Positions 4,680 to 21,800 of a DNA stretch of 37,452 bases are shown piece by piece. The notes beneath the pieces are model-generated. The model was not told the DNA's origin. It was given only the letters and a program-made list of their open reading frames with translations, and did no database searches. Made by a program: the position numbers and the translations under genes. Within the stretch, counting starts at the first letter, position 1. Every line of letters begins with the position of its first letter. The stretch comes from a virus, in the IMG/VR virus record IMGVR_UViG_3300021255_000078, positions 1 to 37,452 of that record. One strand, 5' to 3'.

Positions 4680-5498
4680 TTAAGCCTCCTGTTTTCTGAA
4701 TCTGAAATCCCTTGAATTATCGCTCTGAATGGCTATATTTGTAGATTTTTCCCTGATTCTTCCTGCCGCCGCACCGTCTGACGAATAGTAATCTTTCAGC
4801 GGAATTTCGCTTGAAATTATCGTCTTTTTATCGGCATAATAACGTGCATTGATGATGACATAAGCCTTTTTTACCTCGTTGTATTCCCTGCCGCTGTCCG
4901 AATTTTTGAGAAAGTCGTCAATATAGAGAACGTCAGTGTTTCTGATTTCCTGCAAATAATTTTCATACTCGTCATATCTGAATTTCAGTGCATCGAGTTT
5001 CTGAGAAATATCTGTCCAGAGAAGATATTTCACGTTCCGACCCTGATTCATGAGAGCCTTGCAGACTGCCGTGCAGAGGTGAGTTTTTCCGCAGCCGTGA
5101 ACTCCCGACATATAAAGCCAGCGTTCCGTCACCTGCTGAGTGTAAATAATTGCGGCTTGCTTTGCGGAGGTCTGCCACGGTTCTTCCGCCTTGAAATTTT
5201 CAAAGGATTTTTCAAGGAGATTTCCCAGACCGCTTTTCTGCATGAAAAGGACGGAATTTCTTTTTTTCATGCATTCACATTCCCTTGTGAAGATACTGCC
5301 ATTTTCCTCGTCAAGATACTCAAAACGCCCTCTGTTAAGGCATTTATTGCAGTTTATACCGTCATTTTCATTGAGGTTTCCGACAGTTCGGTTAAACATA
5401 TCGCACTGCCATTTCAGATAGTCATTTCCCGAAAAACTCACATTCGGAACGGGGATATTTTTTTCTCTGAGAATGTCAAAAAACACGCTTGTATTCAT
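4680..5498 (-). CDS. DnaC/IstB-like AAA+ helicase loader
   Basis: Walker A GVHGCGKTH and Walker B VLYIDDF. The ATG at 5498 forms an ATGA overlap with the upstream stop and has a GGGGGAAA SD. Confidence 0.8.
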   Translation of the reverse strand: MNTSVFFDILREKNIPVPNVSFSGNDYLKWQCDMFNRTVGNLNENDGINCNKCLNRGRFEYLDEENGSIFTRECECMKKRNSVLFMQKSGLGNLLEKSFENFKAEEPWQTSAKQAAIIYTQQVTERWLYMSGVHGCGKTHLCTAVCKALMNQGRNVKYLLWTDISQKLDALKFRYDEYENYLQEIRNTDVLYIDDFLKNSDSGREYNEVKKAYVIINARYYADKKTIISSEIPLKDYYSSDGAAAGRIREKSTNIAIQSDNSRDFRFRKQEA

Positions 5499-6214
5499 AT
5501 CATTTTCCCCCACATTTCTTCGTCATAGTAATCGTCTGATGATGTTCCCATGAAATCTTTTTTCGCTGAGTAGTCATCAAGCCAGCACTCCTGAGAAAAC
5601 CACGAAGAACCATGCTTTATGTACTGTGTTTCGGTTCTTTCAGCCTTGATTTTGTTGATATAGGCATTGAGACCGCTGAGAATTGTTTCCTTTGAAGTGC
5701 CGTTTTTTCTTGCCTTGATATAGGCTTTGAGAGCGTTTTTTCTGCCTTCTTTTCTCGGATAGATATTCCAGACTTCCTGAAATTCATCTTCAAAAGCTTT
5801 ATCACTCAGCTTTGCTGAGGAAGAATTATTTGTATTTGTTTTTGTATTTGTATTTGTTTTTGTATTTGCTTCATTTGCTTGATTTTGCTTGTCTTTGCTT
5901 TCGTTTGCTTGATTTTGCTTGTCTTTGCTTTCATTTGCTTGATTTTGCTTTTGCTGACTTATTATACCGCCTTTTCTTCCTGCTTCACGCCTTTTATTGC
6001 TGATTTCCTCATACTTCTCAAAGTTCTGGTCAATACCTTTTTTTAGAATCCTGTACATCAGCTTAATCGGGAAACTGTTTGAATCACTGTCAGTTCCGTA
6101 TGCTGAATAGTGGAGCAATGCACGGAATAATTCACCAAGCTGTTCATTTGTGAAAAGGTCAAGTTCTTCCGCATATTCAAGCGGAACAATGAAATATTTT
6201 CTGTTGTTTTCCAT
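5495..6214 (-). CDS. Replisome organizer / replication initiator-like protein
   Basis: C-terminal FQEVWNIYPRKEGRKNALKAYIKA...GSSWFSQECWLDDY is typical of phage replication-organizer proteins. It lies directly upstream of the DnaC-like gene. The central linker is low-complexity and encoded by tandem repeats. Confidence 0.6.
   Translation of the reverse strand: MENNRKYFIVPLEYAEELDLFTNEQLGELFRALLHYSAYGTDSDSNSFPIKLMYRILKKGIDQNFEKYEEISNKRREAGRKGGIISQQKQNQANESKDKQNQANESKDKQNQANEANTKTNTNTKTNTNNSSSAKLSDKAFEDEFQEVWNIYPRKEGRKNALKAYIKARKNGTSKETILSGLNAYINKIKAERTETQYIKHGSSWFSQECWLDDYSAKKDFMGTSSDDYYDEEMWGKMI
5831..5955. repeat. Tandem repeats / phased iterons inside the organizer gene (candidate ori)
   Basis: 30-bp unit TC(A/G)TTTGCTTGATTTTGCTTGTCTTTGCTT at 5871-5900, 5901-5930 and 5931-5955 (partial). 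TTTGCTT recurs 8 times at exact 10-bp spacing (5874-5950). GTATTTG(T) repeats lie at 5832-5868. Confidence 0.8.
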
Positions 6215-6331
6215 AATGTACTTCCTTTCTGCCCTGTGCAGATAACTAAAATTGTACCTTAAAACTATTTGTACCTAAAAAACCTGCGGGATAAAATCCC
6301 TTTCTGTAAGTGGTTTAAAAAAAGCATTTTC

Positions 6332-6354
6332 TCAATGCAAAACCATTGATTATT
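6332..6354. repeat. 23-nt repeat, copy 1 (TCAATGCAAAACCATTGATTATT)
   Basis: Matches 21760-21782 at 22/23 positions in direct orientation. The core TCAATG-CAAAAC-CATTGA is a 6-6-6 inverted repeat. It lies 50 nt downstream of the 265-aa recombinase stop. Confidence 0.7.
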
Positions 6355-6403
6355 GAAAAATTTTTCTGAAAAAATTACTTCTCATAACTGGGGTTATCCC
6401 TTG

Positions 6404-7201
6404 TTACCAGTTGACAGCTTCATCAACAGCGTTCCTCTGCTGTTCCTGCGACTGCCTGAGATAAATCTGTGTGACCTTCAAATCATTGTGTCCGAGGAGG
6501 TCAGCGAGGAGCGAAATGTTGTTGTTTCGTTTCAGAAACTCGATAGCAAAAAAGTGTCTGAAAGCGTGAGGGTGCATGACCTGTTTCGGAATGTCATATT
6601 TCTTTGAAAATTTTGTCAGCATTCCCGAATATCCCCGTGAAGTCAATGGTTTCCCATAGAAATTCACGGCTATCAAGTCATCATCTTTGAAATTTTCAAG
6701 GTATTCCGAAAGCTCATCACGGAGCGACTTCGGAAAATATACTGTCCTCATATGGGATTTTGTGTACAGGTCAACTCTGCCCGAAATTACGTCTTTTTTA
6801 CGGATTTTCAAAGCTTCTGATATTCTCATTCCCGTCCTTGAAATCAGCAGAATATTATAATACCAGCGCAAATTGTCACGTTTCAGACAGTTCATTAATT
6901 TCTCATACTGCTGAACGCTTATGACATTCTCAATATAGGTCTTTTTCGGCTCTTTTATGGACTTCAATTTCATGGGTATATCTTTATAGTCGCAGTAGCG
7001 GAGCATAGCTGTAATGCGTAAATTGACGGTCTTTGGAGAGAATTTTTCAATCATTTTCTGCTTAAAGTCAATTAAATTTTGTTTTGAAACTCTCTTGTAA
7101 AGTTCGCTGTATTTTTTGACTGCATAAACATATGCATCAATTGTATTTTCTGCGAGTTCTTCTTCACGCAGATACTTCTCAAATCCTTTCAAGTCAATCA
7201 T
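6404..7201 (-). CDS. Tyrosine recombinase, short XerC/D- or invertase-like (265 aa)
   Basis: Contains RISEAL, HPHAFRHF and LGHNDLKVTQIY (R..HxxR..H..Y signature). The ATG at 7201 has an AGGAGA SD. The track extension to 7393 overlaps the upstream gene. Confidence 0.85.
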   Translation of the reverse strand: MIDLKGFEKYLREEELAENTIDAYVYAVKKYSELYKRVSKQNLIDFKQKMIEKFSPKTVNLRITAMLRYCDYKDIPMKLKSIKEPKKTYIENVISVQQYEKLMNCLKRDNLRWYYNILLISRTGMRISEALKIRKKDVISGRVDLYTKSHMRTVYFPKSLRDELSEYLENFKDDDLIAVNFYGKPLTSRGYSGMLTKFSKKYDIPKQVMHPHAFRHFFAIEFLKRNNNISLLADLLGHNDLKVTQIYLRQSQEQQRNAVDEAVNW

Positions 7202-7220
7202 ATTTGTTCTCCTGTTTTTA

Positions 7221-7874
7221 TCAGATAAGCAATCCCATATTTCTGGGAGTGCGGAAAATCCTGCTCCGAGGATAATTGTCTGTATAAGGCTCTGTAAGGG
7301 TGTTTCCCTGCACGACAACAGCATCAATCCCAAGAAGTGACAACTGCACATAGCACATATACACACCCTTCCAGTCCAAATCCTGAGCGACAACCCTCAT
7401 GCACTGCTGATAATTGAATCCCTTGCGTTTCAGAACATCGGCAAAGGCGATAATCATACCGCCGCCGCCGCAGGACGGTTCACTCACAGTAAGCGGATAA
7501 CTGCCGTCATAATCGTTCGGAATTGAAGTTTCCGCAGTCATAAGCGAAACGTTGTAAGGAGTGAAGAACTGCCCTGTATTCTTGTTTCCGCAGCCGCTTT
7601 CCATGTAGATTTCGCCTAAAATATCGGAGATTTTTTCATCAAAGGATTTGACAAGCCATGCAAACATAGTCACAAAATTATGCATATCGTCTTTGCTGTA
7701 TTTTTCGGCAATCCGGATATATCTTTTCTCCCTGTCATGCCATGTTCGGCTATGAATAATACAGAGAGAATTTGCAATCGCCAAAGCCATTAGTTCTATC
7801 CAGTCACAGAAAATATTGTATGGAGACTGACTGCCCGACATTGAATTTATTGTTTTGATTATTTCCTTTTTCAT
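7221..7874 (-). CDS. N6-adenine DNA methyltransferase-like protein lacking the catalytic motif (fragment or SAM-binding-only protein)
   Basis: 217 aa with GQFFTP (motif X), EPSCGGGG (motif I) and AQDLD. It then ends after GNTL+24 aa with no (D/N)PP(Y/F) motif and no target-recognition domain. Confidence 0.6.
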   Translation of the reverse strand: MKKEIIKTINSMSGSQSPYNIFCDWIELMALAIANSLCIIHSRTWHDREKRYIRIAEKYSKDDMHNFVTMFAWLVKSFDEKISDILGEIYMESGCGNKNTGQFFTPYNVSLMTAETSIPNDYDGSYPLTVSEPSCGGGGMIIAFADVLKRKGFNYQQCMRVVAQDLDWKGVYMCYVQLSLLGIDAVVVQGNTLTEPYTDNYPRSRIFRTPRNMGLLI

Positions 7875-7885
7875 GCCCTGCCCCC

Positions 7886-8920
7886 TCAGAAAAACTTATC
7901 ATGCTGATATTTCAAATCACTGTCATCAAGGTCAAGATAAATTTTTGTTGTCTCTATACTTGCATGACCTAACATTCTCTGAACATCAAGCAGCGACATA
8001 CCTTTTTTTATTGCAAACGTTGCCGCTGTTCTGCGAAAACGGTGAGGGTGACAGTTTTTCACTCCTGCGATTTCCCCGATATTTCGAGTTTGTCTTTCTA
8101 TGCTCGACTTTTCCCAACAGTCGTCAAAGGTCTTGCTTTCGTCACCGAGAGGGGAAAAAGCATAAACTTTATCGCCTGTGATTTCCCAGTATTCAAGAAG
8201 TCGCATTTTGGCAGTCGGTGTAATAAATACAGTTCGTTCCTTGCTGCCTTTGCCGAAAACAATTGCAGTCCTCTGTTCGAGGTCAATATCTTCACGTTTC
8301 AGCGTGGAGATTTCCCCTACACGGCAGGCGGTTGACAGCATAAATTCAACCAGTGCAACAGCTCTTTTTCGTTTTTCCTCCCGATGATTTCCGTCAAGCA
8401 CAAAACACGCATCACGGATTTTAGCGCAGTCAGTTTCCGAAAAGGCTTTTTTCTTGCGTTTCGGAGTGCGGACCTTTTTGATTGATGAGCAGATATTTTT
8501 GTCGATGTATCCCTCATCGGAGAGCCACCGAAAGAAAGTATTCAGAATCCTGCGTTCATTGTCCATTGTCGCAGGAGAACACTTTCTCTCAATCTGACGG
8601 TGAGCGAGATAGAAACGGATATCATCGGAAGTCAGAATATTAAGCGGTTTTTGCGTCATTCCGAGGAAACAGTCAATTACTTTTTTGTAATAATAAATGC
8701 TTTGTTCGGCTAATCCCTCAACCTTTTTTGCAACGAAAAACATGGTATAGCCCTTTTTGTCATCATCATAGACGACAAGTTCCGTGTGTTCTGGTTTTGG
8801 CTGAAAATCATACTTTCCGATTTCATAAAATACCGCCTGTTTTATTTGTTCAAGCTGAATGTCATTAAAGCCGTGAAGATTCTCATAAATTCCGCCCCAC
8901 AGCGTTCGCAAATCAACCAT
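7886..8920 (-). CDS. Tyrosine recombinase / phage-type integrase (344 aa)
   Basis: Contains RVGEIS, HPHRFRRTAAT and LGHASIETTKIYL, plus an N-terminal SAM-like core-binding region. SD is GGGGG. Confidence 0.85.
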   Translation of the reverse strand: MVDLRTLWGGIYENLHGFNDIQLEQIKQAVFYEIGKYDFQPKPEHTELVVYDDDKKGYTMFFVAKKVEGLAEQSIYYYKKVIDCFLGMTQKPLNILTSDDIRFYLAHRQIERKCSPATMDNERRILNTFFRWLSDEGYIDKNICSSIKKVRTPKRKKKAFSETDCAKIRDACFVLDGNHREEKRKRAVALVEFMLSTACRVGEISTLKREDIDLEQRTAIVFGKGSKERTVFITPTAKMRLLEYWEITGDKVYAFSPLGDESKTFDDCWEKSSIERQTRNIGEIAGVKNCHPHRFRRTAATFAIKKGMSLLDVQRMLGHASIETTKIYLDLDDSDLKYQHDKFF

Positions 8921-8930
8921 AACTACCCCC

Positions 8931-8959
8931 TTGACAAATCCAAAAATATGTACTATAAT
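8931..8959 (+). promoter_or_regulatory. Perfect consensus sigma-70 promoter on the plus strand
   Basis: TTGACA (8931-8936), 17-nt spacer, TATAAT (8954-8959). It points away from the integrase gene and into the 3' end of 9027..9500. Confidence 0.7.
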
Positions 8960-8965
8960 TAAATT

Positions 8966-9096
8966 GTTGCACAGGGATAAATGATTTAATAACCGTTGTC
9001 AACAGGCGGTTAAGTGAGCGAAGAAATTAATCATTATGCCTGAAAAGACTGCCGATTGAAATGCCTGACCGCTTTTCGTTGGCGGTCTTTTTCTTT
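8966..9096 (+). ncRNA. Candidate ~130-nt antisense small RNA (OOP-like)
   Basis: Runs from the predicted TSS after the 8954-8959 -10 box to the intrinsic terminator at 9067-9096. It has no SD-led ORF. It is antisense to the last ~23 codons of 9027..9500. Confidence 0.45.
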
Positions 9097-13395: not shown

Positions 13396-14175
13396 ATGAA
13401 AAAATATTTATCAATTATTCTTGTTTCAGCTCTAATAGCAAGTTTAGTCTCATGCGGAGAGAGTACATCAACATCTTCAACCGTTACCGAAGAAAAGACT
13501 GCTCCAACCGAAACAACTGCCGAAGTTATAACGACAACAGAAGTAACTACGGCTGCTGAAACAACAATTACAACGACCATAACCACAACTGCCGCTGAAA
13601 TGACAGAGAATGAAACAGCCAGTACAGAAACAGAGCCTATAACGGAAAAGATTACAGAACTTTCATCTGAAACAAACACTCAACAGCAAAATACATTGGA
13701 AGTTATTGAAGATATAGGGATAGAGAGAAACCCAGATGATGTTACTATAACTATTCCGTCAAATATGATTTCAAACATTGATTCAGCAATCAAAGAGGCT
13801 GAAAATGATGAAAGTGTAACAAGTGTTCAGGAAAATGCAGACGGGTCTATGACTTATATCATGACTGCCGAAGCTTATGAGGAAATTATGCAAAATCTTA
13901 GAAATAATTTTGATGAAGCTATTAATAATATCATATCCTCAGAAAATTATACAACCATAACCAATATCACACGCAATGAAGATTGCTCCGAAATCTATTT
14001 CTACATTACAGATTTTAGTGAATACAAAAAAACTTTTGATTTTATGGCGGAAGCAGGATTTAAAAAATTATCAGAATTGTATCAGCACTTTGATGGTAAA
14101 GAAAATCCTATATTTGTAGTTCATTATCTTGACATTGAAGGCAATGAATTTGACAGTTATACATACAATGAATAA
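13396..14175 (+). CDS. Lipoprotein (259 aa) with a Thr/Glu-rich linker
   Basis: Signal peptide plus lipobox (LIASLVS-C), then a TTTE-rich low-complexity region and a C-terminal globular part. Confidence 0.75.
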   Translation: MKKYLSIILVSALIASLVSCGESTSTSSTVTEEKTAPTETTAEVITTTEVTTAAETTITTTITTTAAEMTENETASTETEPITEKITELSSETNTQQQNTLEVIEDIGIERNPDDVTITIPSNMISNIDSAIKEAENDESVTSVQENADGSMTYIMTAEAYEEIMQNLRNNFDEAINNIISSENYTTITNITRNEDCSEIYFYITDFSEYKKTFDFMAEAGFKKLSELYQHFDGKENPIFVVHYLDIEGNEFDSYTYNE

Positions 14176-14197
14176 AACTTATAAGGAGAGTTTAAAA

Positions 14198-15400
14198 ATG
14201 AGTGAAAATAAAGGTGTGCTGAAAGGAAGAAAAGTCGTCCTCGTTGGTGAGCTGAAACGCATGAACGCTCAGGATTTTCATAAACTTATTTCCGAAAATG
14301 GCGGTGTCAATTTAAACGGTTCGTATGATGTAAGTCATAACCAGACCCCCGATATTATTGTTATGAGTGATACTTACCTTGAAATTGTAAAAAGTAATAA
14401 TGTATATCCTCCAAGTTCAAACAAAACATTCTGGCAGAAATACGTTAAAGATAATCCCGGTATTCCTGTTATGGACGAATCTGTATTCTTTGTTTCTTTA
14501 AGAATGGGAGCTTTCAAAAGAAACAGAAGTGCAGAAATGTCAAAAGGTAAAAGTTTACGCAAAAGCATAAAAGACTATACCGTTATAGACCTCGAAACAA
14601 CAGACCGTTATGCATCTTCTTCTGAAATAATAGAAATGGCTGCTGTAAAAGTAAGAAACGGTCAGATAATCAGTACATACAATACCCTTATAAAGCCCGA
14701 TGAGCCTGTTCCTCTGAAAATAAGAAACATTACGGGCATAACAAATGAAATGCTTGAAAATGCCCCGAAAATTGAAGATAAATTGCAGGAATATCTTGAT
14801 TTTATCGGAAATGATATAGTTGTCGGTCATAACATATCGGCTTTTGATGTCAATATCATCAGAAGATATTGTGAAAAGCTGAATATCGGAAGTTTCACAA
14901 ATGATATGATTGATACGCTGAAATACTCTCATTACTGTGATATTGAAGTAAGCAGTTACAGACTTGCTACTATTGCTGAATATTTCGGGATAGAATATCA
15001 TGCACACAGGGCATTGAACGACTGTACTGCGAATTACAAGGTTTATGAAAAACTCAAAGAAAAATATAATGGAGTTTACAAAGAAAGTGACAATAGCGAA
15101 AATTCATCATCACAGTCATTAAAAATAAAAGATACATATTCAGATATTTCAGGAAAAAACATAGTCCTTACAGGTGATTTCAAGGCAGGCAGCAGAGATG
15201 ATATAACTTCTCAGCTTGAAAAACTTGGTGCAAACGTAAAAACAGGTGTTTCGGGAAAAACAAATTATGTAATCGTTGGTGCTTTAGGAAGTGCGAGTTG
15301 GTCATTTGGCACTTATGGCAGTAAAGTTAGTGATGCTATGGAATTTCAGCAAAAAGGAAAACCTGTTGAGATTGTAAAGGAAGAAGATTTTTTTGAATAA
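14198..15400 (+). CDS. BRCT - DEDDh 3'-5' exonuclease (DnaQ-like) - BRCT protein
   Basis: ExoI VIDLETTD, ExoII VVGHNISAFDVNII, ExoIII HRALNDC. N-terminal LKGRKVVLVGEL... and C-terminal GKNIVLTGDF...GKTNYVIVG are BRCT-like. The ATG at 14198 has an AAGGAGAG SD. Confidence 0.75.
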   Translation: MSENKGVLKGRKVVLVGELKRMNAQDFHKLISENGGVNLNGSYDVSHNQTPDIIVMSDTYLEIVKSNNVYPPSSNKTFWQKYVKDNPGIPVMDESVFFVSLRMGAFKRNRSAEMSKGKSLRKSIKDYTVIDLETTDRYASSSEIIEMAAVKVRNGQIISTYNTLIKPDEPVPLKIRNITGITNEMLENAPKIEDKLQEYLDFIGNDIVVGHNISAFDVNIIRRYCEKLNIGSFTNDMIDTLKYSHYCDIEVSSYRLATIAEYFGIEYHAHRALNDCTANYKVYEKLKEKYNGVYKESDNSENSSSQSLKIKDTYSDISGKNIVLTGDFKAGSRDDITSQLEKLGANVKTGVSGKTNYVIVGALGSASWSFGTYGSKVSDAMEFQQKGKPVEIVKEEDFFE

Positions 15401-15621: not shown

Positions 15622-17094
15622 ATGAAAAATGCAGTAATATATGCCCGATTTTCTTCTGATTTACAGCGTGAAGAAAGCATTGATGCACAAGTCAGAGCCT
15701 GCCGTGAATATGCTGCAAAAAAAGGTCTGAAAATTATTGAAGTCTATTCCGATGAGGCGGTCAGCGGCAGGACAGCCAACAGAACGCAGTACCAGAGACT
15801 TCTGCGTGACTGCCAGAAAAAGAATTTTGAAATCATACTCATACACAAATATGACCGTATCGGGCGCAGTCTGGGTGAACACGTTAATCTTTCCGCAAGG
15901 CTTGACAAACTGGGGATTGAACTTATTGCAGTATCTCAGGACTTCGGCAGCTCCGCAGAGGCAAAAATCATGAAAACTCTTGTATGGAGTATGTCAGAAT
16001 ATTATGTTGATAACCTCGCAGCAGAAACAAAAAAAGGGCTTAAAGAAAATGCCCTGAAAGCCCTGCATAACGGAGGAGTTGCACCATTCGGATACGATAT
16101 AGTTGACAAAAAATATGTCATAAATGACTTTGAGGCTGAGTATGTACGAAAAATATTCAGTGCGGCAATTCAGAAAAAAGGATTCACAGAAATTATCCGT
16201 GAACTTTCCGACTGCGGAATCAAGGGAAAGCGTGACAAGCCTATAAAGTACAGTCAGATATATGAAATTCTCAGGAACGAAAAATATACAGGAGTTTATG
16301 TATATTCTGTTGATGAAGAAGAAAAACGTTCAGACCGCCGTGCAAAACCAAATGCCATAAGAATTGAAGGTGCAATTCCTGTAATTATTGACAGGAAAAT
16401 TTTTGAGGAGGTTCAGGAGATTATGAACGAAAGAAAGCAAACAGGAAAAAAAGCTGATTATCTTTGCAGCGGACTTGTATACTGTAAGTGCGGTGCTAAA
16501 ATGCATGGCATGAAGTCTGTCCGCAAAGGTCACACATACCATTATTTCACCTGTTCGGAGCATTGCGGTGCAAGTTCGGTACGCATGGAAGATATTGACA
16601 ATGCAGTAAAAGAGTATCTCTGTAATCTTCTCAGCAAAGAAAATCAGGAGAAAATCAGTCATGCTCTCAGAACCTACAAGTTTGATGAACAGGAACGAAG
16701 CTCAGACTTCAACAAAATACTGAAAAAACGCATAAATGAAAAACAAAAACGCTATGACAATCTGCTTGCAAATCTTTCAACCGATCTGCTGCCTGCTCCT
16801 GTCGTTGCTGATATAGGCAAGGAAATGGAAGAACTTAAATCCGAAATTGAATGTCTTAAAAATACAGAACCGCCAAAGAGCTTCACAGCCGATATTATCT
16901 GTAACTGGCTTGATTCTATAAAAAATTCTCCCAATCCGAGTGCCGTCCGTATGCTTGTTGAACGCATTGACATAAAAGATAAGACCGTCTTTAACATACA
17001 GAGTACATTAAAAACGGTCTTAGGTAAAACTGGTTGCGGCGGTTCGCAACATATTTTACCCAAAATTCTTTTCAAATACATATTCAAAAAATAA
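15622..17094 (+). CDS. Large serine recombinase (phage integrase, 490 aa)
   Basis: N-terminal resolvase domain (VIYARFSSDLQ...YDRIGRS), a recombinase domain, a Cys-rich zinc ribbon (CKCGAKMHG...CSEHCG) and a C-terminal coiled coil. Confidence 0.9.
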   Translation: MKNAVIYARFSSDLQREESIDAQVRACREYAAKKGLKIIEVYSDEAVSGRTANRTQYQRLLRDCQKKNFEIILIHKYDRIGRSLGEHVNLSARLDKLGIELIAVSQDFGSSAEAKIMKTLVWSMSEYYVDNLAAETKKGLKENALKALHNGGVAPFGYDIVDKKYVINDFEAEYVRKIFSAAIQKKGFTEIIRELSDCGIKGKRDKPIKYSQIYEILRNEKYTGVYVYSVDEEEKRSDRRAKPNAIRIEGAIPVIIDRKIFEEVQEIMNERKQTGKKADYLCSGLVYCKCGAKMHGMKSVRKGHTYHYFTCSEHCGASSVRMEDIDNAVKEYLCNLLSKENQEKISHALRTYKFDEQERSSDFNKILKKRINEKQKRYDNLLANLSTDLLPAPVVADIGKEMEELKSEIECLKNTEPPKSFTADIICNWLDSIKNSPNPSAVRMLVERIDIKDKTVFNIQSTLKTVLGKTGCGGSQHILPKILFKYIFKK

Positions 17095-20302: not shown

Positions 20303-21478
20303 TTATGCGTTTTCGAGGGCTGCTACTTTGTTTTCAAGGGCGATTATTCTCGCAAGAAGGTCTGAAACATCAACACCAGTAGCAGAGTTATTAACATATA
20401 TTTTGCCTTCCCAGTCAACAGCAAAAGCATTTGAACGTGCATCTGGCGATGCACCATTGCCTATTATAAATGCATATTTGCCGTTTGAATCCTCGATATT
20501 ATTTTTCCCTTGAACGTGCTGACAAGCAGACGAAGCAATTGTATTTGCACCTTCTACATGAGAACATCGCCCACTTGCTGCTGTATTATCACCCTCAGCA
20601 TGAGACATATTACCACTTGCTGTTGTATAACTACCTTCTGCATGAGAACGGTCGCCACTTGCTGTCGTACTCCTTCCCTCAGCATGAGCATTATCGTTTA
20701 TTGCTTTTGTGTATCCACCCTCAGCATGAGAACCCCAAGCACTTGCTGTTGCAGTGTCACCCTCAGCATGAGAACGAGCACCGCTTGCTACTGAGTACCG
20801 ACCTTCTGCATGAGAATAAACACCTGATGCTGTTGTATCTCCACCCTCAGAATGGGCGGAAAGAGCTGTCGCTTTTGTATATCCACCCTCAGCGTGGGAG
20901 TTACCACCTAACGCATATGCATGGTTACCCTCTGCGTGAGAATAACCACTTGCTACTATATTGGCTGTATAATTATTAAAAACTTCTGCATTGTTTTCTA
21001 CTGTATATGTTACGCCATCAACAACATAAGTAGTTCCTGCTGGAATAGTTTTACCTGCATTGTAGATTTCTTCTGTCAAGGCATTTGCAATTTTAGTTTT
21101 TTCGGCAGAAGTAACGAATTTGTTATTTTGATTTGTGTCGTCCACCAAATCAGAATTGAGTTTATTTGTTGATGTGATTTCGGACTGTAATCCGTCAACC
21201 AAATCTGCAACGGAAAAGTCAACAGTATTTCCATTTTTCAGCGTGAGAATAACTTTCTTTGTATTATCATCATAGCTTCCGCCAACAACCATTGTTTCAA
21301 GCGGAAGGTCAATTGTCTGAGGTGTTCCGAGAGCTTCGCCGCTTGTGTTTTTAAGAGTTGCAGTCATTACATAAGTCTGTGAATTTATTGAAAGTTCAAG
21401 ACTGTGAGCATATGCAGAACCGTCATCGCCTGAACCGCTGAAATTTGCCGCTTTAAGAATATTATAAAGTTCACCCAT
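20303..21478 (-). CDS. Tail fibre / receptor-binding protein with YadA-head-like repeats
   Basis: 391 aa. The N-terminal fibre-like region contains NKFVTSAEKTKI. Eleven 14-aa (S)HAEG repeats follow. The C-terminus is the coiled coil LLARIIALENKVAALENA. Confidence 0.65.
   Translation of the reverse strand: MGELYNILKAANFSGSGDDGSAYAHSLELSINSQTYVMTATLKNTSGEALGTPQTIDLPLETMVVGGSYDDNTKKVILTLKNGNTVDFSVADLVDGLQSEITSTNKLNSDLVDDTNQNNKFVTSAEKTKIANALTEEIYNAGKTIPAGTTYVVDGVTYTVENNAEVFNNYTANIVASGYSHAEGNHAYALGGNSHAEGGYTKATALSAHSEGGDTTASGVYSHAEGRYSVASGARSHAEGDTATASAWGSHAEGGYTKAINDNAHAEGRSTTASGDRSHAEGSYTTASGNMSHAEGDNTAASGRCSHVEGANTIASSACQHVQGKNNIEDSNGKYAFIIGNGASPDARSNAFAVDWEGKIYVNNSATGVDVSDLLARIIALENKVAALENA
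20507..20950. repeat. Eleven degenerate 42-nt coding repeats (SHAEG units)
   Basis: H(A/S/V)(E/Q)G recurs at residues 181, 196, 209, 223, 237, 251, 265, 279, 293, 307 and 321 of the fibre. Confidence 0.85.
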
Positions 21479-21698: not shown

Positions 21699-21759
21699 TT
21701 TTAACTCCTTTCCGCACAGAAATTTCTCTGTACATAAACAGCTTAAAATGGCAGTTTTT

Positions 21760-21782
21760 TCAATACAAAACCATTGATTATT
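21760..21782. repeat. 23-nt repeat, copy 2 (TCAATACAAAACCATTGATTATT)
   Basis: 22/23 identical to 6332-6354, in the same orientation. It lies in the intergenic gap between the holin gene and the 75-aa gene. Confidence 0.7.
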
Positions 21783-21800
21783 TTATGACTTCCAGAAATT

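Follow-up and report, generated by a model that had tools for sequence, protein, structure and literature searches.

What use can a phage with a likely lysogeny integrase of its own have for two further site-specific recombinases and, between them, what looks like half of a DNA methyltransferase (MTase)? This question is raised by positions 6404-8920 of a complete 37,452-bp viral record with direct terminal repeats (IMGVR_UViG_3300021255_000078), analysed here over its whole length and called the window. Three co-directional genes, separated by gaps of only 11 and 19 nt, are found there on the minus strand in the context of the early (replication) lytic operon: a 344-aa tyrosine recombinase that we name IntA (7886-8920), a 217-aa MTase-like protein named half-HsdM (7221-7874) and a second tyrosine recombinase of 265 aa, IntB (6404-7201). 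A first-pass annotation, made from the sequence alone, had delimited the three open reading frames (ORFs), recognized the recombinase signatures of the outer two and pointed to a separate large serine integrase. ORF calls and Pfam searches bear out all of this, the serine recombinase (15622-17094, plus strand) displaying Resolvase, Recombinase and Zn_ribbon_recom domains; located in a lysogeny module apart from the trio, it is likely the lysogeny integrase. The host is a gut bacterium, and the phage collection searched held no DNA-level relative of the 37,452-bp genome. As far as sequence comparison can tell, the nearest cellular counterparts of all three genes reside in phase-variable type I restriction-modification (R-M) loci. 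The reading that we favour, and to which we grant a little less than an even chance, is that the block acts on the type I R-M system of the host, with half-HsdM as a decoy or poison subunit and the recombinases working on sites outside the phage.

The protein in the middle provides the first part of the answer. Its Pfam N6_Mtase match is restricted to positions 21-121 of the 311-position profile, and it matches phrog_5696, a family annotated as function unknown, from end to end (E 3.6e-69). The ESM Atlas gives it the automatic label 'N-6 DNA methylase' and nothing more. The motifs noticed at first pass (GQFFTP, EPSCGGGG and AQDLD) are all present, together with a GNTL motif. Among 44 diverse family members, G101, Q102, F104 and P106 (motif X), G136 and G138 (motif I) as well as D165 and D167 (motif II) are invariant, and GNTL (motif III) and a C-terminal R-x-F-R-T-P are nearly so. 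A profile search of the PDB aligned the family to residues 164-300 of EcoR124I HsdM, with 'ERVF-RTP' of half-HsdM facing strand β4 and motif IV of the enzyme ('DAIV-SNPPY'). Motif IV is thus degenerate, a conserved R-T-P replacing NPPY, and the chain ends about eight residues later. The AlphaFold2 model is compact and confident (predicted local distance difference test 92.6, predicted template modelling score 0.91), with a helical N-terminal bundle followed by four strands (128-132, 159-165, 184-189 and 206-208, corresponding to β1-β4) before the chain end at residue 217. Foldseek returned only type I HsdM and PacII M subunits, matched in their N-terminal part, plus other short phage 'methylases'.

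Compared with HsdM (PF02384; EcoR124I 7bst, PacII M 7vru/7vs4, 3lkd and 2okc), half-HsdM shares the N-terminal helical region, the first four gamma-class Rossmann strands and motifs X (GQFFTP), I (EPxxGxGG), II (the acidic D165) and III (GNTL, identical in EcoR124I), but it lacks NPPF/Y, strands β5-β7, the target-adenine pocket and the C-terminal helices that bind HsdS. In class I methyltransferases, the whole S-adenosylmethionine (SAM) pocket is held by β1-β4 with motifs X and I-III, while the target base is handled by motif IV and later strands. Since half-HsdM keeps the former and lacks the latter, it is predicted to be a probable SAM binder that cannot methylate. Could the missing part be supplied by another phage gene? 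The first-pass annotation had seen neither (D/N)PP(Y/F) nor a target-recognition domain, and the genome-wide searches agree: (D/N/S)PP(Y/F/W) occurs in no open frame of at least 60 aa across the whole 37.5-kb genome, and the HsdS domain (PF01420) has no match anywhere in the phage at E values up to 1. A phage-encoded partner providing motif IV or target recognition was consequently ruled out. In the same vein, the phage differs from type I R-M loci by having neither hsdS nor hsdR.

Is half-HsdM then a gene in decay? The ORF had initially been described as truncated, with a remnant as one of two options. It is indeed short relative to HsdM, but the gene itself is not truncated and the remnant option does not stand. 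Its homologues form at least 2,305 clusters at 90% identity, nearly all of about 217-220 aa, with 526 relatives among species-representative prokaryote genomes, and no fused or longer form was found among close relatives. Half-HsdM shares 33-42% identity with plasmid and phage half-HsdMs, while full-length HsdMs are only distantly related (E 1e-7 to 1e-11 against the family profile); for these reasons, we consider it a member of an old, length-conserved family rather than a recent truncation. It is a complete protein, in which a helical N-terminal domain is followed by that half of the HsdM catalytic domain which binds SAM. The other option raised at first pass, a SAM-binding decoy, stays plausible given the inability of the protein to methylate.

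With which genes does half-HsdM travel? Linkage was evaluated in 109 loci containing a family member, 65 of them at 44% identity or more to the window's protein and 44 more distant. A same-strand, adjacent IntA-type gene is present in 48 of the 65 close loci (74%), compared with 3 of the 44 distant ones. Among these 51 pairs, half-HsdM precedes IntA in 36 and follows it in 15, the reverse order being spread across at least five separate sequence groups; a 4-nt overlap joins the two genes in 22. Reciprocally, 42 of 80 viral-contig loci with an IntA-type gene have, no further than about 1.1 kb away, a same-strand, half-size MTase-like ORF; 29 of these partners clearly belong to the half-HsdM family, 13 are more divergent, and motif IV is absent from all 42. 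The other viral IntA-type loci show a full-length NPPF methylase about 2 kb away (7 loci) or nothing of this kind (31 loci). Pairwise distances of half-HsdM and IntA are correlated (Mantel r 0.71), a value that none of 2,000 permutations reached. Half-HsdM and the IntA-type enzyme thus constitute a two-gene module that is widespread among phages of gut Clostridia and often translationally coupled. Prophages of Waltera intestinalis and Schaedlerella carry the pair internally, between replication genes and the late activator/terminase, and not at the prophage edge. Serine recombinase homologues accompany the pair in three other loci (L012, L015 and L057). Because of this internal position and of the serine integrase present in several of these phages, including the window, the IntA-type enzyme is not the lysogeny integrase; neither is IntB.

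The strength of this linkage bears on the most serious alternative, according to which the recombinases serve the phage's own DNA (resolution of dimers or concatemers, circularisation or an undiscovered switch) and half-HsdM is an independent early anti-restriction or accessory gene that happens to share an insertion hotspot. Such an arrangement would fit with the occurrence of half-HsdM without any recombinase in distant phages and on plasmids. However, a hotspot alone hardly explains 74% adjacency, 42 reciprocal associations out of 80, 4-nt overlaps and linkage in both gene orders. Moreover, no palindrome (perfect arms of at least 8 nt, spacer of 4-10 nt) is shared within 400 nt of the 51 pairs. 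On balance, we regard this alternative as unlikely, although it deserves to be kept in mind for the sections of the argument that follow.

What kind of recombinases are IntA and IntB? Both match the Pfam Phage_integrase domain (PF00589) and have a SAM-like N-terminal domain (PF13495 in IntA), with E values of 1.6e-25 and 1.7e-24. The catalytic set R200, K224/K227, H293, R296, H319 and Y328 is invariant in 28 IntA-type sequences. In IntB, which is only 25% identical to IntA, the Arg, HxxR, His and Tyr residues align at the same positions and the hairpin Lys is offset by one column. Both enzymes are therefore predicted to be catalytically intact. A longer IntB frame with a TTG start reaches position 7393, and homologues favour the ATG at 7201. 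The NCBIfam scores of the two recombinases fall far under the cut-offs for XerC, XerD and FimB/E. When 101 Lachnospiraceae genomes were searched for chromosomal relatives of the two enzymes, the best ones for IntA (E 1e-50 to 1e-57, 37-41% identity, 322-337 aa) turned out to be located among hsdS genes of mixed orientation. Eight of the ten loci fetched are type I R-M invertons, in which a full HsdM bearing NPPF and a full hsdS are accompanied by the recombinase and by partial hsdS genes in either orientation; most of the eight also include an ORF of about 1,000 aa, the size expected for HsdR, and several contain short recurring inverted cores, e.g. TAAACAATAATTTAG. Such 'epigenetic invertons', or hsdS shufflons, have been described for type I R-M systems with invertases of the PsrA/CreX and other clades (Huang et al., NAR 2020, PMC7672463).

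A maximum-likelihood (ML) tree of 67 recombinases unites IntA-type enzymes and inverton invertases in one clade (ultrafast bootstrap [UFBoot]/SH-like approximate likelihood ratio test [SH-aLRT] 98/96). The window's IntA falls, together with all the inverton invertases (seven verified), in a subclade of 16 members (99/97), and monophyly of the MTase-linked IntA-type enzymes alone is recovered in none of 200 bootstrap trees. IntB-type enzymes form a separate clade with full support (100/100). For them, the link to inverton invertases comes from best-match ranking and gene neighbourhood, not from placement together in the tree: of their six best chromosomal relatives (40-42% identity), three have HsdS-like ORFs, variously oriented, to either side. 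On the basis of these comparisons, IntA appears as a tyrosine recombinase of the hsdS-inverton invertase clade, and IntB as a representative of a second clade whose closest chromosomal relatives include hsdS-inverton invertases. IntA resembles the Lachnospiraceae inverton invertases by its clade, length and catalytic residues, but the window has neither the hsdS genes nor the inverton repeat cores that would constitute their substrate. As an aside, tandem same-strand IntB-type pairs were observed in two of the Lachnospiraceae genomes (G050:C37:59596-61251, G090:C247:2-1660 and G090:C182:6840-8427), for which the PF01420 search listed no HsdS.

Complete invertons also occur on viral contigs. 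Six IMG/VR contigs (L152, L172, L173, L187, L188 and L190) contain HsdM with NPPF, HsdS, an IntA-clade invertase and an inverted partial hsdS, and three of them (L152, L187 and L188) display the 15-nt core TAAAYNATMATTTAG in inverted pairs. Either phase-variable methylases carried by phages or host DNA flanking predicted proviruses could account for them. Could the block be what is left of such an element, i.e. a type I inverton (HsdM-HsdS-invertase-hsdS') once carried by the phage, now in decay and functionless after the loss of hsdS and of the 3' half of hsdM? The existence of complete elements with IntA-clade invertases makes this conceivable, and the commonest pair order, half-HsdM then IntA, mirrors hsdM-(hsdS)-invertase. 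An in-frame deletion that fuses the two genes in locus L086 could be taken as a further sign of decay. Nevertheless, half-HsdM belongs to an old length-conserved family to which full HsdMs are distant, the catalytic residues of the recombinases are invariant, and the invariant motif columns of half-HsdM speak against relaxed selection, so that we consider the relic explanation most improbable. The L086 locus itself (4992-6248, from a Lachnospiraceae metagenome-assembled genome) encodes a 418-aa ORF in which half-HsdM residues 1-157, extending through motif I, continue in frame into the C-terminal ~260 residues of an IntA-type enzyme; it is a deletion derivative of the pair and not a true fusion.

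How did three genes come together in the window? In the sister phages L112 and L113, whose flanking genes are 76-92% identical to those of the window, an IntB-type gene (48% identity to IntB) stands alone between the gene for a 157-aa protein and the gene for a DnaD-like replication initiator, while L110 and L111 have the full trio in the same slot. Since the IntB-type gene fills the slot alone in two sister phages, the trio is composite, and IntB is the resident gene of the slot in this phage lineage. A recombinase standing alone beside the replication initiator is also what would be anticipated if the enzyme served the phage's own DNA. More broadly, an IntB-type gene lies near half-HsdM in nine loci and in four different arrangements (A-M-B, B-M-A, M-B-A and B-A-M, where A, M and B stand for IntA, half-HsdM and IntB), which indicates that the three-gene form is a recurrent minority variant. 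The first-pass annotation had treated the trio as one unit; what is seen instead is a widespread half-HsdM/IntA pair set before a resident IntB slot, not a fixed module. The likeness to 'recombinase in trio' (RIT) elements is similarly partial. These elements consist of three tyrosine recombinase genes in fixed order and in a tight one-strand cluster. The block shares the tight one-strand clustering of several tyrosine recombinase genes, but its two recombinases belong to distant clades, a non-recombinase gene is inserted between them and the gene order varies among loci.

The boundaries of the cassette are sharp. Upstream (8921-9026), conservation in all five related phages extends through the first codons of the first gene (ATGATTGATTT), whether this gene is of IntA or IntB type. 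This segment includes a perfect sigma-70 promoter on the plus strand (8931-8959; TTGACA, 17-nt spacing, TATAAT), directly upstream of IntA and pointing away from it on an otherwise silent strand; the promoter block is conserved in all five phages. A GC-rich hairpin with a T-run (9067-9087, plus strand) is found about 105 nt past the promoter, antisense to the 3' end of the 157-aa ORF. On the downstream side (6215-6403), all five phages are conserved again from about 55 nt after the IntB stop codon; the segment comprises an 11-6-11 palindromic motif discussed below and, before the replication-initiator gene begins, a weak hairpin with a T-run (6288-6300). No att-like direct repeats were seen at the cassette boundaries across the five related phages.

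Such a replaceable block could be a selfish mobile cassette, in which the recombinase moves the genes between phages and half-HsdM is anti-restriction cargo. The block is indeed found in numerous phage backgrounds that are unrelated to each other, with either gene order, near-identical pairs are co-inherited, as reflected in the Mantel correlation given above, and sister phages differ by it inside conserved flanks. But its boundaries show no direct repeats or att-like sites, the exchange resembles a cassette replacement by homologous recombination, since IntB alleles also differ between sisters, and the junctions between the genes, ranging from overlap to 12 nt, are too tight for an att site in either gene order. 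Taken together, these features leave the mobile cassette an improbable explanation. A circular intermediate that would generate the different gene orders was ruled out: both cyclic orders (A-M-B and B-M-A) occur, with junctions too tight for an att site.

If the recombinases acted on the phage genome, where would their sites be? The cores of the inverton relatives give no indication. The IntA-clade core TAAAYNATMATTTAG has one match in the phage at two mismatches, compared with 2.75 expected, and is absent from every MTase-linked locus searched; the IntB-clade core has no match in the phage. The first-pass annotation had proposed two candidate substrates for a fimB/fimE-like switch, in which the recombinase pair would flip a phage segment between inverted repeats around 9519/12097 or recombine sites at 6332/21760, the MTase-like ORF being a remnant. 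FimB/FimE and Xer are short tyrosine recombinases without arm-binding domain, two different ones being encoded close together, and the likeness to IntA and IntB lies in this last point and in the missing arm-binding domain. The difference is that no invertible element or unique dif-like site can be tied to IntA or IntB. The first repeat is real (9519-9555/12097-12133): its 37-nt arms are 92% complementary and 2.5 kb apart. Each arm is near-palindromic, however, the left one at the 3' end of a 143-aa ORF and the right one intergenic. The repeat is kept in L110 (trio) and L112 (IntB only), with a spacing of 1.6-2.5 kb, and is absent from L111 (trio) and L113 (IntB only), and the genes between its arms were never seen in inverted configuration in any relative. 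As its presence is independent of the recombinases and its orientation single throughout, the 37-nt repeat was discarded as a switch substrate.

The second candidate is a palindromic motif of 11-6-11 architecture (AATAATCAATG-GTTTTG-CATTGA), located at 6332-6360 on the minus strand ahead of the replication-initiator gene. Its geometry is dif-like and it is found just downstream of the IntB slot in all five relatives, which could favour both the fim-like switch and, more generally, an action of IntB on the phage's own DNA. A second direct copy is present 15.4 kb away (~21757-21785, minus strand), in front of a group of late-region genes. Each copy stands at the head of a gene block and overlaps a -35-like TTGA(A/G)A, and both positions are conserved in related viral contigs; the second keeps its motif in phage fragments L212 and L213, where no recombinase is nearby. 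These features are more readily expected of an operator than of a recombination site, and the motif is probably an operator or promoter element, as judged from its position and conservation. As a site for IntB, the TCAATG-N6-CATTGA motif is not supported, although this role keeps some likelihood. With neither substrate tied to the recombinases and the MTase-like ORF being no remnant, a fim-like switch seems very improbable.

Which process, then, would require a half-HsdM early in infection? Its distribution outside the pair is informative. Distant relatives (below about 44% identity and typically of 240-350 aa) occur in Faecalibacterium and Vibrio phages as standalone genes within the early or replication region. 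The family also appears, again as standalone genes, on 2,006 PLSDB plasmid records, of which 1,398 are conjugative. In a Klebsiella IncFIB/IncFII plasmid, it is found in the leading region (ssb, parB-like, psiB, psiA ... 'N-6 DNA methylase', which is half-HsdM, ... DUF932, SLT, traM), and in an Enterococcus plasmid it directly follows ssb. Leading-region anti-defence genes of conjugative plasmids have been reported to include 'orphan' or 'putative' methyltransferases (Samuel et al., Nature 2024, PMC11541004), which are treated in that work as protective methylases, the motif-IV-less half-HsdM family not being singled out. The standalone half-HsdMs of the IncF leading region and beside ssb resemble these anti-defence genes by their location, but without a catalytic motif they would need another mode of action than protective methylation.

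The opposite role, defence rather than counter-defence, has also to be envisaged. Prophages often place defence genes between replication and packaging modules, which is where the pair is found, and half-HsdM could be a decoy that senses the anti-restriction proteins of superinfecting phages in a Ronin-like manner, the recombinase acting as effector or regulator. Yet PADLOC and NCBIfam yielded weak type I MTase matches for half-HsdM, and beyond these PADLOC matched no defence-system model; the genes of the window belong to a lytic early operon; and the standalone relatives in plasmid leading regions favour counter-defence. We therefore give little credence to a defence function.

We return to the favoured reading, an action of the block on host type I R-M. 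Half-HsdM would be a non-catalytic, SAM-bound decoy or poison subunit, and the presence of standalone relatives in plasmid leading regions suggests that it would operate soon after DNA entry. For the recombinases, the targets would lie outside the phage genome, the simplest candidates being the repeats of host hsdS shufflons, or else would be phage sites that have escaped recognition. A bolder version combines both activities: in gut Clostridia phages, SAM-bound half-HsdM would disable or hijack the host enzyme, and phage-encoded copies of the host's hsdS-shufflon invertases would scramble or switch the host specificity locus in trans, in the course of infection or of lysogeny. We hold this complete scenario to be unlikely as a whole. 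Several observations weigh against the favoured reading in general. The C-terminal helices by which HsdM is attached to HsdS are missing from half-HsdM, so that its way of joining a type I complex is not obvious. An identity of ~40% to inverton invertases does not allow the DNA specificity of IntA and IntB to be predicted. The sampled inverton invertases nest inside the phage-linked diversity, and recruitment may have occurred in either direction. The two partners show only weak co-divergence at depth (Mantel r 0.29 among divergent half-HsdM/IntA pairs), a point that would equally suit recombinases devoted to the phage's own DNA. Finally, two of the five half-HsdM-carrying Lachnospiraceae genomes sampled (G001 and G094) are without any HsdS, which implies that the module does not need a type I system in the lysogen.

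A few additional features of the genome were recorded. The replication-initiator gene (5495-6214) includes seven overlapping 30-nt units with a 10-nt spacing (5870-5959) that encode a KQNQANESKD-type repeat; they may constitute an intragenic origin of iteron-like type. An ORF of the lysogeny module that immediately precedes the serine integrase (14129-15400, plus strand) fuses an RNase_T-type exonuclease to a BRCT domain. In the tail/late region, a 300-nt direct repeat of 91% identity (21803-22102/24769-25068) covers two minus-strand ORFs of 127 and 134 aa, which are paralogous genes about 3 kb apart. A 391-aa ORF (20303-21478) displays seven tandem 42-nt units at 20497-20899, with 61-72% identity to the reference copy.

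Literature searches retrieved no description of the half-size family, nor of its association with inverton-type recombinases. The pairing brings together two known kinds of genes, a putative anti-restriction accessory gene and an inverton-type invertase; the mechanism is a proposal. For plasmid biology, the half-HsdM family is one of the unexamined leading-region 'methylases' on about 2,000 sequenced plasmids, many of them from clinical Enterobacterales. The database label 'N-6 DNA methylase' tacitly implies a protective methylase, which half-HsdM is predicted to be unable to be. The family is also open to easy testing, since enterobacterial plasmid homologues exist and well-studied type I enzymes are available in E. 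coli. Type I R-M systems whose specificity genes can be inverted are frequent among host-associated bacteria, where they are believed to broaden the resistance to phages. In the bolder version of our proposal, progeny DNA or the methylome of the lysogen would no longer be locked to one specificity. A conserved phage module made of a non-catalytic half of HsdM and the matching class of invertase would represent a new kind of counter-defence or of host-epigenome manipulation.

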